From Escherichia phage EC150, in sequence record ON210137.1: a stretch of 64,000 bases of DNA. One strand, 5' to 3'. This document shows positions 2,623 to 17,683 of this stretch, in pieces. The notes beneath the pieces were generated by a model that ran no database searches, was not told where the DNA came from, and saw nothing but the letters and a program-made list of their open reading frames with translations. Position 1 is the first letter of the stretch. Each line of letters starts with the position of its first letter. The translations under genes were made by a program, and so were the position numbers.

Positions 2623-2928
2623 ATGAGTACCGAAGCTATGAAGAGCAAGTTGTTTGAGGTGATGCAGCCCGCTGTCGAGTGCGGAGCTATTCAGGAGTTC
2701 AAAGAGACGCAAGAAGGCGGTGAGCCAGTATTCTTCTTCAAGAACAAGAAAGGTGCGGCGGCTGCGGTGATGCTCTTGAAGAACAGCGACACGACCTTTA
2801 TCCTTTGCGCAGGCGGTTATGACCTTGTTGCCGATGATGCCTACATCACCTGTGCGACGGGTCTTAATCCTATGTTAACGTTTGAGCGTCGCGGCATTCG
2901 TGTTGCGACGTTTGGAGGCGGTTTATGA
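2623..2928 (+). CDS. hypothetical protein
   Basis: In-frame ATG 2623 (MSTEAMKSK...) preceded by AAAGGAGAGG. The upstream part of track ORF 2563 covers the promoter. Confidence 0.6.
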   Translation: MSTEAMKSKLFEVMQPAVECGAIQEFKETQEGGEPVFFFKNKKGAAAAVMLLKNSDTTFILCAGGYDLVADDAYITCATGLNPMLTFERRGIRVATFGGGL

Positions 2929-3110
2929 GCACCGAAGTCCATAACGCATCAGCACTGGTAAGCTTTTACCGAAACAAAGGCGTGTCGCTAGTTAAAACGC
3001 CGCAAGGCATGCTGTTCTTTGGCACGCGATTCCTTAAGGCTTCGGAGCGTGAAACGCTGTCTAAATTCGACCAGAAGACATTACACGCAGTTTGGAGAAG
3101 ACAGCAATGA
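2925..3110 (+). CDS. hypothetical protein
   Basis: 61-aa ORF with ATGA overlap to the upstream gene. Confidence 0.5.
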   Translation: MSTEVHNASALVSFYRNKGVSLVKTPQGMLFFGTRFLKASERETLSKFDQKTLHAVWRRQQ

Positions 3111-11756: not shown

Positions 11757-11802
11757 AATACACCTCACTTGTTAACGTATAATGAGTATAACTTAATCGA
11801 GC

Positions 11803-11830
11803 ATAAAGTAAAGGCGCTTTTCAGCGCCTT
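11803..11830 (-). terminator. stem-loop / weak terminator after the tail-fibre gene
   Basis: 8-bp stem AAGGCGCT / AGCGCCTT (11811-11830), then TACTTTAT on the minus strand. Confidence 0.45.
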
Positions 11831-14962: not shown

Positions 14963-15173
14963 TTTCTTTCCACTCCACGAATGTACTGCCACTTGTTTCT
15001 CTATTTAGCAGGTATCTGCCGCGCATTCCATGAAGGCTGAACTCAACCGTCGATGGATTAGATTTTGAAAGCCACATCACTTGACCGTCGAATGGTCCGC
15101 CGATGCATGTGTATTTGGCCTTTGGCTCACTCCTTTTGGGTCGCTTTGCCCGCTCTTTGATTGATAGTCTCAT
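14952..15173 (-). CDS. hypothetical basic protein
   Basis: 73-aa ORF whose start overlaps the upstream stop. Confidence 0.5.
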   Translation of the reverse strand: MRLSIKERAKRPKRSEPKAKYTCIGGPFDGQVMWLSKSNPSTVEFSLHGMRGRYLLNRETSGSTFVEWKENGK

Positions 15174-15388
15174 CAGTCTTCACCTTGAGATTCAAGACAA
15201 GTAAGGACAAGCCACGTCATCGGAAGAATCAAAACCAGAGAAATAAGTGACCAAATGGACCAACACAAGATGACAGACTTGAATGTGTGAACGTCGCCAA
15301 ACGTAGCAGTGAAACAAAATCCCATTACGAAAGCAATCGCTGTGGAGTGATTATCAATGGCTTTGATGGCGCGGTCGATGAGTTTCAT
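15173..15388 (-). CDS. small membrane protein (2 TM segments; holin-like topology)
   Basis: 71 aa. TM segments are AIAFVMGFCFTATF and ILCWSIWSLISLVLILPMTWLVL. GGAGG RBS. First gene after promoter 15415-15442. Confidence 0.55.
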   Translation of the reverse strand: MKLIDRAIKAIDNHSTAIAFVMGFCFTATFGDVHTFKSVILCWSIWSLISLVLILPMTWLVLTCLESQGED

Positions 15389-15462: not shown

Positions 15463-15525
15463 AAAAAAATGGCCAGAAATAATCTGGCCAAAAAGATCAC
15501 CCTTTATCCACTACTAAGCTGGAAT
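15463..15525 (-). ncRNA. candidate ~60-nt small RNA or terminated leader
   Basis: On the minus strand, promoter 15558-15530 is followed about 35 nt later by an 8-bp hairpin TGGCCAGA/TCTGGCCA (15490-15470) and a run of 7 T (15469-15463). There is no ATG-initiated ORF. A second promoter follows. Confidence 0.3.
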
Positions 15526-15529
15526 CATA

Positions 15530-15558
15530 ATTTTACTTGATATAGCTGTCTCAAGCAA
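15530..15558 (-). promoter_or_regulatory. sigma70-like promoter (leftward)
   Basis: Minus strand: TTGCTT (15558-15553), 17-nt spacer, TAAAAT (15535-15530). It overlaps the rightward promoter back-to-back. Confidence 0.45.
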
Positions 15559-15566
15559 ACTATAAT
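15537..15566 (+). promoter_or_regulatory. sigma70-like promoter for terL
   Basis: TTGATA (15537-15542), 18-nt spacer, TATAAT (15561-15566). The -10 abuts ATG 15567, which argues that the real terL start is ATG 15600. Confidence 0.45.
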
Positions 15567-17027
15567 ATGAATAAAATATTAACACATAATTGGAAAGTCA
15601 TGTACCAGTTGAATCCTGCTTTAAGAGAAGTCTGGAAGACGAAAGCGCGATACAAAGTCATATACGGCGGTCGTGCATCTTCCAAATCGCACGATGCCGC
15701 TGGTTTTGCTATTTATTTGGCGGCAAACTTCAAATTAAAATTCCTTTGCGTTCGACAATTCCAGAACAAGATTTCTGAATCAGTATATACGCTATTAAAA
15801 GACAAAATAGAAATTTCTGATTTCAAAGACGAGTTCAACTTATTAAAGAACTCTATTGAACACAAAAGAACAAAATCTGAATTCTTATTTTACGGTATCG
15901 CACGCAACGTTGATGAAATCAAATCAACAGAAGGCGTTGATGTTCTTTGGCTTGAAGAAGCGCATGCGCTGACTGAAGAGCAGTGGGACATCATTGAGCC
16001 GACAATTCGTAAGGAAGGGTCCGAAATATGGATCATATTTAACCCTGATGAAGAGGCTGATTTTGTCTACCAGAACTTTGTCATGCGACCGCCGAAGAAT
16101 GCCATCGTTAAGAAGATTAACTGGCAAGACAACCCATTCTTGTCGCAAACAATGCTGGATGTTATCGCTGGCATGTATGAGCGCGACCCGAAAAAGGCAG
16201 AACACGTTTATGGCGGAGTACCGAAGACTGGCGGCGACAAGTCGGTAATCAACCGTGCATTCGTCAAGGCCGCGCTAAACCTCCACAAACACCCTACGCT
16301 GGGATGGAGCTTGTCAGGGTCTAACCGTATAGGCTTTGACGTGGCGGACGACGGCGACGACTTAAACGCCACAGCATTTGTCACTGGCAACGTATTGCGC
16401 GGCATCAAGACATGGGAAGGTCTGGAGGATGAATTGCTTAAGTCCGCAAGCGGAGTCTGGAAAGACGCATTGACATTCGGCGCATCAATCACCTATGACG
16501 CCATCGGTGTTGGTGCATTTGCTGGTTCAAAATTTGATGAGCTTAATGAGTGTGCAATCCATGAAAATCCAACATTCCCAAGAATCGAATTTAATGCGTT
16601 CAACGCGCAAGGTGCTGTTGATGATCCTGATGACGTTTTCCTTGAGTTACCACACGTTGAAATACTCAATAAAGACCATTTCGCAAACATAAAAGCGCAA
16701 AAATGGACTGAGATTGCCGAACGATTCAGAAAGACATATGAGTATGCGACAGGGCAAGCCGTATATCCGACCGATGAGTTGATTTCCATCGACACAGACG
16801 GCATCCCAGAACTTGGTATTCCCGCTTGGTCTGCGGAAGAGATTGAGACGTTTCTTTTTGAGATGTCAGCGCCGCGCAAAGATACGTCTGTTCTTGGTAA
16901 GTTCAAAGTTGAATCGAAAAAAGATATGGCAAAGCGTGGAGTCAAATCGCCTAACAAAGCGGACGCAGCAATCATGGCATTGATGAAACCAATTGTTGCA
17001 GCATCCGGCTTCTTCTCTAACCTTTAA
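15567..17027 (+). CDS. terL: terminase large subunit
   Basis: 486-codon ORF. Walker A-like GGRASSKS, then LWLEEA (Walker B-like), then a C-terminal nuclease-type region with acidic motifs. Resembles PBSX/headful-type TerL. The true start is probably ATG 15600 (GGAAAG RBS). Confidence 0.9.
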   Translation: MNKILTHNWKVMYQLNPALREVWKTKARYKVIYGGRASSKSHDAAGFAIYLAANFKLKFLCVRQFQNKISESVYTLLKDKIEISDFKDEFNLLKNSIEHKRTKSEFLFYGIARNVDEIKSTEGVDVLWLEEAHALTEEQWDIIEPTIRKEGSEIWIIFNPDEEADFVYQNFVMRPPKNAIVKKINWQDNPFLSQTMLDVIAGMYERDPKKAEHVYGGVPKTGGDKSVINRAFVKAALNLHKHPTLGWSLSGSNRIGFDVADDGDDLNATAFVTGNVLRGIKTWEGLEDELLKSASGVWKDALTFGASITYDAIGVGAFAGSKFDELNECAIHENPTFPRIEFNAFNAQGAVDDPDDVFLELPHVEILNKDHFANIKAQKWTEIAERFRKTYEYATGQAVYPTDELISIDTDGIPELGIPAWSAEEIETFLFEMSAPRKDTSVLGKFKVESKKDMAKRGVKSPNKADAAIMALMKPIVAASGFFSNL

Positions 17028-17030
17028 CAA

Positions 17031-17270
17031 TTAAATCATTCCGTGCTGAAGGTCGAGCTTTCTTGCGGCAAACGACCTGGCACGGAATCGCTTACCCGCC
17101 CTTACTGCCTGTCGAATTTTCTTTTGCAAACACTTACGGTCAAAATCGTTGCGGTCGACGGCTTCGAGTAAATCGCGACGCAGTGCACCCAGTGTCGACT
17201 TTTCGGAGACTTCAACGCCCAGCGCGGCTGCAACATCTTTCAAAACATCGAGTTCGGTTAAAGTTCTCAT
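17031..17270 (-). CDS. hypothetical protein (N-terminal SAP/HeH-like helix pair, basic C-terminus)
   Basis: 79-aa ORF on the opposite strand between terL and portal. LTELDVLKDVAAALGV resembles SAP/Rho-N motifs. Confidence 0.5.
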   Translation of the reverse strand: MRTLTELDVLKDVAAALGVEVSEKSTLGALRRDLLEAVDRNDFDRKCLQKKIRQAVRAGKRFRARSFAARKLDLQHGMI

Positions 17271-17683
17271 TTGATAATCCCCTTGATGTCTGATTCTGCC
17301 ATAAAGATTGGAGTGCCGCCGCCAGGAACAATAGAGCGCGTGACCTTGTCAAACATATCGTTTTCTTCAACTTGAATACGATAAAATTTATTTTTGGATG
17401 AAGATGGGCACAATCCCATAAATTTTCCGATGCCGCGAACGCATTCATCTTCAAAGTATACTGTTTCACCTTGAATGGAGTCGATGTCGTCTACTGGATA
17501 GACCTTGCGACCCAATAGCCACTCATCCAAAGTCGCCTGCAAGACGTTGCGCGCATCTAAAATCCACGGGTCAATAGTAGCACCTTCATATCGCGCAGCA
17601 GTGGCCTTTGCCAGTTCTTCATATTCGCATACGTTAACGACTTCGCCGTTGTGCAAGACGACAAATACAATTGTTGTGCTCAT
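17267..17683 (-). CDS. hypothetical protein
   Basis: 138-aa ORF with AGGAG RBS. Overlaps the downstream gene by 4 nt. Confidence 0.55.
   Translation of the reverse strand: MSTTIVFVVLHNGEVVNVCEYEELAKATAARYEGATIDPWILDARNVLQATLDEWLLGRKVYPVDDIDSIQGETVYFEDECVRGIGKFMGLCPSSSKNKFYRIQVEENDMFDKVTRSIVPGGGTPIFMAESDIKGIIK

Follow-up and report, generated by a model that had tools for sequence, protein, structure and literature searches.

Short RNAs that end at an intrinsic terminator close behind their promoter are known from several phages. In Stx phages the constitutive PR′ transcript that ends at tR′ is processed to StxS, a 74-nt Hfq-binding trans-regulator (PMC7547250). In virulent Pseudomonas phages, 42 terminators lie in 5′ untranslated regions (5′UTRs), where termination gives a predominant short RNA (<250 nt) and read-through an mRNA from the same start; the 29 non-coding RNA (ncRNA) candidates reported include species of 61–92 nt, two candidates were confirmed by Northern blotting and one is from Pbunavirus 14-1 (Putzeys et al., 2024; PMC10914365). 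The present analysis concerns an element of this kind in Escherichia phage EC150, studied in a 64,000-nt stretch of sequence record ON210137.1 (the window): a hairpin followed by seven T residues (T7) on the minus strand, preceded by a weak promoter-like sequence (P1) and located upstream of the divergent large terminase gene, terL. The element is of a kind already known from the PR′–tR′ RNA of lambda and Stx phages and from the 5′UTR-derived phage ncRNAs. The explanation that fits best, held with a little less than even confidence, is that it would be a cis-acting, promoter-proximal (leader) intrinsic terminator.

The locus has in common with PR′–tR′, the source of lambda 6S RNA and of StxS, a sigma70 promoter (putative in EC150), a terminator that follows almost immediately and a short RNA, predicted in EC150, with a GC hairpin and a U-tract. 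However, EC150 is virulent instead of temperate, its leader is ~60 nt and a second promoter (P2) follows the terminator. Thus, unlike at PR′–tR′, the genes downstream in EC150 are independent of read-through. Neither a Q-type antiterminator nor a Q-binding element nor a conserved promoter-proximal pause signal was found, the antiterminator having been sought among the annotated features of the relative Bas99. The 5′UTR RNAs of the Pseudomonas phages belong to the same 5′UTR-termination class, and 14-1 is of the same family as Wifcevirus, the genus of EC150, but those RNAs were mapped experimentally whereas the Wifcevirus element is known here from sequence alone. Orthology with the single 14-1 candidate was rejected because that RNA maps upstream of gp79 instead of at the terL locus; it serves as a precedent for the class only. 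A promoter <200 nt from a terminator ahead of the first open reading frame (ORF) of an operon is found in Mansfield-type Wifcevirus phages and in Kylevirus-like phages, whereas in EC150 that ORF is absent and P2 intervenes. Lambda oop is likewise self-contained: its promoter is constitutive, its intrinsic terminator is strong and its product is a 77-nt RNA antisense to cII mRNA; the predicted EC150 RNA differs in that it overlaps no opposite-strand gene, the terL transcript starting ~50 nt away and running in the other direction.

In Pbunavirus 14-1, ONT-cappable-seq placed divergent sigma70 promoters in the homologous spacer: P002 (start 822, plus strand) drives gp03 (terL) and P001 (start 707, minus strand), which is strongly active in E. 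coli, drives leftward small genes (PMC10914365). P2 is the positional counterpart of P001 and the terL promoter that of P002, but the two starts in 14-1 are 115 nt apart and no promoter–terminator unit is nested between them. Pbunavirus-like loci retained the divergent layout and had no terminator in the terL-divergent spacer. It is in the enterobacterial genera alone that the putative P1–terminator unit has been added. The phage-specific motif of 14-1 (CTGGG, 2–5 nt before the start) was considered as a hidden promoter of the genes past the hairpin and was absent, EC150 having TCTGGCCA and the Kylevirus-like loci CTGCTCCACC.

EC150 is an E. coli myovirus of the Lindbergviridae, a family that in recent taxonomy holds Wifcevirus together with Pbunavirus and Kylevirus. 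The terL-divergent region matched 28–29 phage records at 89–100% identity, all of them Wifcevirus, that is, E. coli and Shigella myoviruses of 66–72 kb such as WFC, WFH, ECML-117, Mansfield and Bas98–101. The terminator and the promoters are situated in a 211-bp spacer (29% GC) that separates terL on the plus strand from a leftward module on the minus strand, which consists of five small genes and then a T-shaped tail-fibre gene. For comparison within the genus the spacer and its flanks were aligned from 10–14 Wifcevirus genomes, with variable columns counted in 10 of these. For comparison between genera, terL was used as a handle to assemble 80 viral contigs and three metagenome loci; 73 of the viral-contig loci had at least 300 nt upstream of terL. 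The metagenome scan for Kylevirus-like loci added a single new sequence, L109, which is near to contig L021, together with two contigs of Wifcevirus, a number that does not suffice for covariation statistics, and a pattern scan of IMG/VR returned mostly known Wifcevirus and probable chance matches.

The original prediction, a reading of the letters alone, proposed a ~60-nt small RNA (sRNA) nested between back-to-back promoters, and every motif on which it drew (hairpin, T7, P1, P2 and terL promoter) lies exactly where it was placed (Table 1). The hairpin was described there as a textbook intrinsic terminator, an assessment that the present analysis upholds: a stem of eight pairs (five GC; −13.8 kcal/mol), a 5-nt loop and T7 were listed by the terminator scan. 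Among the 21 terminator-like sites in the window, hairpin and T7 at 15490–15463 ranked second by stem energy and carried the longest T-run (15469–15463). It is the sole strong site in the window that does not lie behind a same-strand gene, and its palindrome occurs once. The quality of the terminator is far above what chance would give. Read on the plus strand, the hairpin precedes AAAAAG instead of a T-run, and thus the terminator works on one strand only. The GenBank records of WFH and WFC already carry a putative terminator annotation at this hairpin. From the window alone, the terminator is judged real and P1 only plausible; with the relatives added, the predicted terminator is both real and conserved in the enterobacterial branch of Lindbergviridae.

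The pattern of variation in Wifcevirus fits that expected of functional hexamers and of a functional RNA stem. The hexamers of P1, of the terL promoter and of P2 were invariant, and the stem arms varied in 1 of 16 columns, namely the outermost 5′ base, which was T or C. The loop varied in all five columns, the stretch past the T-run in 6 of 20 and the spacer common to P1 and the terL promoter in 4 of 10. The T-run itself was constant (T7–T8) in all Wifcevirus and Kylevirus-like loci. The loop sequence TTATT (15478–15482) is replaced in WFH (L001) and AV128 (L013) by its exact reverse complement, AATAA, as expected if the whole palindrome had flipped by template switching at the hairpin.

The promoter P1 (TTGCTT-N17-TAAAAT) matches the consensus at 8 of 12 positions, 3/6 in the −35 and 5/6 in the −10 hexamer, and fell below the threshold of the promoter scan in which it was not listed. 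Two alternatives with 9/12 matches overlap it (TTGAGA-16-AATTAT and GAGACA-17-TATGAT), neither of which was kept in relatives. P1 itself was kept. In Kylevirus-like loci its −35 hexamer reads TTGATT or TTGATA in the same register although the surrounding spacer is unalignable, and its −10 hexamer reads TAATAT, TATCCT or TAAAAT, with the pattern TTGATx-N17-TAxxxT retained in three lineages (PA1, L021/L109 and Kyle). The core common to Wifcevirus and Kylevirus-like loci can be written [ATTATA]-nn-TTGATx-N11-ATCAAG-TAxxxT, in which the −35/−10 pair is readable both ways. Counted along the terL promoter, the −35 hexamer of P1 covers positions −20 to −15, which that promoter gives no cause to conserve; the retention of these positions is the best available evidence that P1 would be a real, though weak, promoter.

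The terL promoter was the top promoter match in the 8–24 kb interval and both of its hexamers were kept across genera. As the cores of P1 and the terL promoter interdigitate, one polymerase fits in one orientation at a time, and competition between the two promoters, as envisaged originally, is plausible.

The architecture of the relatives favors a leader terminator. Of the 73 loci, apart from one unrelated pair, only those of Wifcevirus and Kylevirus-like contigs have a terminator ≤300 nt from terL on the opposite strand. The Kylevirus-like lineages comprise Pantoea phage PA1 (L010), Kyle (L058) and L021/L109. Their leaders from the −10 hexamer to the T-run measure 74 nt in PA1 (L010 ~2857–2931, minus strand), 76 nt in L021 and 75 nt in L058, but the sequences are unalignable, with an identity of 40–45% that equals background; length, not sequence, appears to be constrained. 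The hairpin also differs, reading GGTGGACAG...CTG(C)TCCACC and then T7, and is 69–97% identical within the group compared with 74–81% for terL. This stem is imperfect and bulged and occupies the same position as the Wifcevirus stem. MAFFT gave no structural alignment of the two hairpin types; when pairs were ranked from the T-run on the assumption of positional homology, four to five of seven differed on both sides. In Kylevirus-like loci T7 runs directly into a ribosome-binding site (RBS), GAGAGG, and the first leftward gene begins with its start codon just behind, so that a further promoter would not fit in between. As far as can be read from these loci, the two genera share the architecture of promoter, fixed-length leader, terminator and gene, and not the leader sequence. 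Other Lindbergviridae-like contigs (L026/L028/L069 and L031) have AT-rich perfect palindromes, such as AATTATTTTCAGATTTTTTGAAAATAATT, ~140–170 nt upstream of terL on the minus strand and lack a GC hairpin; these palindromes may be binding sites for a regulator.

The same order recurs within Wifcevirus. In eight phages (Mansfield, ECML-117, TH32, TH35, Eco4M-7, Eco4M-7n, Bas100 and Bas101) a gene for a 76-aa protein, gene 020 of Mansfield, is inserted at the junction behind the T-run, for example at 2177–2407 on the minus strand of contig L002. The protein had no Pfam or PHROG match. The order in these phages is hairpin, T7, A, RBS AGGAG and ATG, with P2 only past the gene; the RBS lies 4 nt past the T-run and the gene has no promoter of its own. 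Thus, in carriers the terminator sits in the 5′ leader of a promoterless gene. Within the phage collection, gene 020 occurs at this site only and is missing from the remaining Wifcevirus. Carriers and non-carriers occur in both subgroups of the genus, and their junctions are not the same in sequence, from which it follows that gene 020 was lost or gained repeatedly. As a hairpin and T7 directly before an RBS and a gene characterize both groups of relatives, the element is ancestrally a 5′-leader terminator. The idea that P1 and the terminator are remnants that flanked a lost gene was rejected, given that gene 020 lies after the T-run and that the leader of the sister genus is just 74–76 nt.

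We infer the activity of P1, its start site, the efficiency of termination and read-through, whereas the elements, their conservation and the relatives' architecture are there to be read. In the favored reading, the host sigma70 RNA polymerase would bind the symmetric divergent region leftward at P1, the weak partner of the terL promoter, would transcribe ~60 nt and would mostly halt at the GGCCAGA/TCTGGCC hairpin and U7, thereby freeing a short ncRNA. The terminator would limit, in cis, leftward transcription into the next unit. Where a gene lies directly behind the T-run, as in the sister genus and in Mansfield-type phages, it would be expressed by read-through only and the element would be an attenuator. 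In EC150 the terminator would insulate the P2 operon and the ~60-nt RNA would be a free-standing by-product that perhaps has acquired a function. With gene 020 absent and P2 next after the terminator, the unit in EC150 stands alone, and its expected product is the ~60-nt RNA.

Several observations weigh against this interpretation. By score alone, P1 is at chance level: a match of its quality occurs in ~24% of random 50-nt windows of the genome and is commoner in the 29%-GC spacer. The predicted leader body (15491–15523) is significantly conserved within Wifcevirus, with 2 of 33 columns variable (P ~0.005 at a neutral rate of 0.25), a constraint that would be needless for a pure by-product. 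As the body lies just upstream of the −35 hexamer of terL, however, this constraint could act on DNA instead of RNA. For a gene without a promoter of its own to lie behind a strong terminator, either termination would have to be leaky or an antitermination factor would have to act. Leftward transcripts from the genes at 17683–17031 also would meet their first terminator-like site at the element, and some of its substrate therefore may not originate from P1.

A short non-coding RNA probably is made from P1 to the terminator. The predicted 61-nt RNA folds into a small 5′ hairpin and the terminator hairpin with an energy of −19 kcal/mol (z = −2.57 relative to shuffles). The statement that the transcript has no ATG holds for a start at ~15525–15523, but an ATG does occur at 15528–15526, between the −10 hexamer and the expected start; its frame (ATG ATT CCA GCT TAG) has four codons and no Shine-Dalgarno sequence. 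The predicted RNA contained no credible ORF. A leader peptide was dismissed on the grounds that just 4-codon frames are available (ATG/GTG ATT CCA GCT TAG, which precedes the expected start, and GTG GAT AAA GGG TGA), both without a Shine-Dalgarno sequence. In the minimum-energy and centroid folds the terminator hairpin was intact and no alternative fold competed with it, so the element is not riboswitch-like; complementarity between leader and stem amounted by eye to 4 nt only (CCAG/CUGG) and no Rfam cis-regulatory family matched at the element.

It is possible, but unlikely, that P1 and the terminator form a dedicated gene for a trans-acting sRNA and exist to make a ~60-nt regulator that probably binds Hfq and pairs with mRNAs of the host or the phage. 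The unit is a compact promoter–terminator pair without an ORF, none preceding P2 in EC150, and the 3′ end of the predicted RNA is sRNA-like: it combines U7 with a GC hairpin and a U-rich stretch and so resembles the Hfq-binding module, which has the same three parts. The 33-nt body is near-invariant compared with third codon positions in the flanking genes, which vary at 0.20–0.29 (20–29%) in the Wifcevirus alignment, and StxS is an earlier case in which an RNA terminated in a leader came to act in trans. However, the body is unconserved among Kylevirus-like phages though they keep a hairpin, and in relatives the P1–terminator unit is the plain 5′ leader of a protein gene. Rfam had no match over the window at gathering score, and a permissive search at the locus gave best local scores of ≤21 bits against thresholds of 41–100. 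The target prediction suggested originally was run with the unstructured 5′ part of the RNA against 97 phage initiation regions and gave no enrichment over shuffled seeds: the best duplex was −22.2 kcal/mol, the shuffled mean was −23.2 kcal/mol and 61% of shuffles did equally well. In a search for k-mer complementarity every match inspected was the locus itself, and 5,426 E. coli genomes showed no similarity to the predicted RNA. Thus, of the two options in the original prediction, a short RNA or an attenuated leader, the leader is favored by the relatives, whereas an sRNA role is without support from Rfam, from a seed shared across genera, from phage targets or from the host. A trans-acting role is unproven, and within-genus conservation is its sole positive support.

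The claim that a terminator within a divergent promoter region is hard to explain except as a short RNA or a leader overlooks a further option, a stop for transcription that reads in. The site is the only terminator-like one on the minus strand past two leftward genes. At a probability that we would put as low as that of the dedicated sRNA gene, P1 could be non-functional and the hairpin could be solely an insulator that stops leftward transcripts either from 17683–17031 or from starts antisense to terL before they enter the P2 operon. Such a role would accord with the chance-level score of P1 and with the recurrence elsewhere in the phage of boundaries at which a terminator is followed by a TTGCCTTT promoter. 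Moreover, between 17700 and 15400 the minus strand had no other terminator-like site even under relaxed criteria, and leftward transcripts therefore could cross terL in antisense and halt at the hairpin. These transcripts would have to traverse 1.46 kb of untranslated terL antisense, however, and Rho normally acts on long untranslated RNA of that type. In 14-1, leftward reads from beyond terL stop ~130 nt inside terL (PMC10914365). An insulator also would not account for the P1 hexamers, which are kept from genus to genus although the intervening spacer is randomized, or for the first gene of Kylevirus-like phages and gene 020 of Mansfield, which have no other recognisable promoter. At the far end of terL the stop codon ends at 17027 and that of a convergent 79-aa gene is at 17031, with 3 nt between them and no intrinsic terminator on either strand; the convergent transcripts therefore must overlap. 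PA1 differs in having a strong plus-strand terminator within the convergent gene (L010 4402–4431).

An antitermination switch resembling lambda PR′–tR′ with Q, by which P1 would fire constitutively, its transcripts would halt at the hairpin early in infection and a late phage factor would permit read-through into the tail-fibre module, is improbable. The succession of promoter, short leader, strong terminator and genes, with a tail-fibre gene in the module, is as such a switch would have it, and leader length is constant per genus despite sequence drift. In EC150 a −10-like TATGAT (15529–15524) stands at the start of the transcribed region, but this pause-like element is not conserved: WFH, Mansfield and AV128 have TGTGAT instead, and the Kylevirus-like leaders lack it. 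No antiterminator is annotated among the 114 features of Bas99, the best-curated relative, in which most small genes are hypothetical. In addition, P2 bypasses the terminator in Wifcevirus and no RNA fold competes with the hairpin. Regulated read-through would be possible but is unsupported.

It is very improbable that the 7-bp inverted repeat GGCCAGA-N5-TCTGGCC acts at the DNA level as a dimer operator or as a packaging or replication signal, for although the repeat is perfect, occurs once in the window and stands beside two promoters, and terminator palindromes can double as transcription-factor sites, T7 is invariant on one strand only, which is a need of a terminator and not of an operator, and the Kylevirus counterpart is bulged, a form that works as RNA and makes a poor operator, so that a pure DNA operator is unlikely. 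A genome terminus or pac site was discounted as the 3.7-kb terminal repeats of WFC and WFH begin ~9.4 kb upstream of terL.

Table 1. Coordinates of the element and of adjacent features in the EC150 window.
Feature	Position	Strand	Remarks
Terminator stem-loop TGGCCAGA-TTATT-TCTGGCCA	15490–15470	−	Terminator scan and stem-energy ranking
T7 tract of terminator	15469–15463	−	Directly after closing pair
Predicted ~60-nt non-coding leader-type RNA	15525–15463	−	Start put 5–7 nt past −10; end in T-run
P1 −35-like TTGCTT	15558–15553	−	Within spacer of plus-strand terL promoter
P1 −10-like TAAAAT	15535–15530	−	Adjoins terL promoter −35 on opposite strand
terL promoter TTGATA-N18-TATAAT	15537–15566	+	11/12; back-to-back, interdigitated with P1
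terL, large terminase	15600–17027	+	Start ATG 15600
Accessory-gene junction	15462–15458	−	~260-bp cassette with 76-aa gene in eight Wifcevirus phages
P2 TTGCCT-N16-TATAAT	15442–15415	−	10/12; promoter of leftward gene module
First leftward-module gene	15173–15388	−	71 aa, hydrophobic, function unassigned

The role of P2 as promoter of the leftward module, also proposed originally, is corroborated by its 10/12 match, its invariant hexamers and its membership of a promoter type that recurs in the phage. Its pattern, TTGCCTTT...TATAMT, recurs at two further positions of the window (three sites found, none expected), and junctions at which a terminator is followed by a TTGCCTTT promoter recur in the phage as boundaries of transcription units. 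One such module is duplicated 1.5 kb apart at 1033–1094 and 2546–2606 on the plus strand; in it the hairpin GGTGAGC-TAAAT-GCTTGCC is preceded by an A-tract and followed by a T-tract. The −35 hexamer TTGCCT is inside the 3′ stem arm and TATACT lies 16–17 nt downstream, so that terminator and promoter overlap. At 11785–11830 on the minus strand, past the tail-fibre gene, the −35 hexamer (TTTACT) of a TTTACT-N16-TATACT promoter is overlapped by the terminator hairpin AAGGCGCT-GAAA-AGCGCCTT; TTTACT is a −35 hexamer typical of the family and is found likewise in sigma70 promoters of 14-1. In promoter-coupled terminators, termination takes place ≤~35 bp (mode 10 bp) from the next start and the two share elements (Fletcher et al., 2026, preprint, 10.64898/2026.08.19.745784). 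The EC150 terminator and P2 resemble that class as a same-strand terminator followed by a promoter at a unit boundary, but the distance from the T-run to the expected P2 start is ~57 nt, beyond the limit of the class. The true coupled form is present elsewhere in the window, at 1033–1094 and 2546–2606. The small proteins that neighbor the element had no Pfam match and no informative PHROG match.

The start of terL was placed originally at ATG 15600 in preference to ATG 15567, and comparison bears this out. The N-terminus MY(Q/K/T)LNPAL begins at 15600 in every genus and several relatives are annotated accordingly. The 11-codon extension from ATG 15567 has no counterpart in relatives and is upstream of the expected transcription start. 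Conservation across genera together with the position of the promoter thus identifies ATG 15600 as the true start of terL. In the records of ECML-117, vB_Eco4M-7 and kaset, terL is taken from the upstream ATG (1461 nt), compared with 1428 nt from 15600.

If the cis reading only is true, the element is part of the ordinary plumbing of phage gene expression. The boundaries of transcription units in this phage are clarified and the start codon of terL is corrected for several GenBank records. Wifcevirus is little studied, is related to the therapeutic Pbunavirus and can be grown on engineered E. coli K-12 (Bas98–101 of the BASEL collection), and the locus lends itself to an exact and inexpensive test of promoter-proximal termination in a virulent coliphage, and possibly of an sRNA there. 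There is a small chance, which we rate below that of either the dedicated sRNA gene or the insulator and above that of the antitermination switch, that the ~60-nt RNA is a trans-acting regulator of the Hfq type, whose 33-nt body would hit host transcripts early in infection and which would have been exapted, in the manner of StxS, from a leader terminator. If so, an Hfq-type regulator would belong to a genus of virulent coliphages noted for very fast replication.

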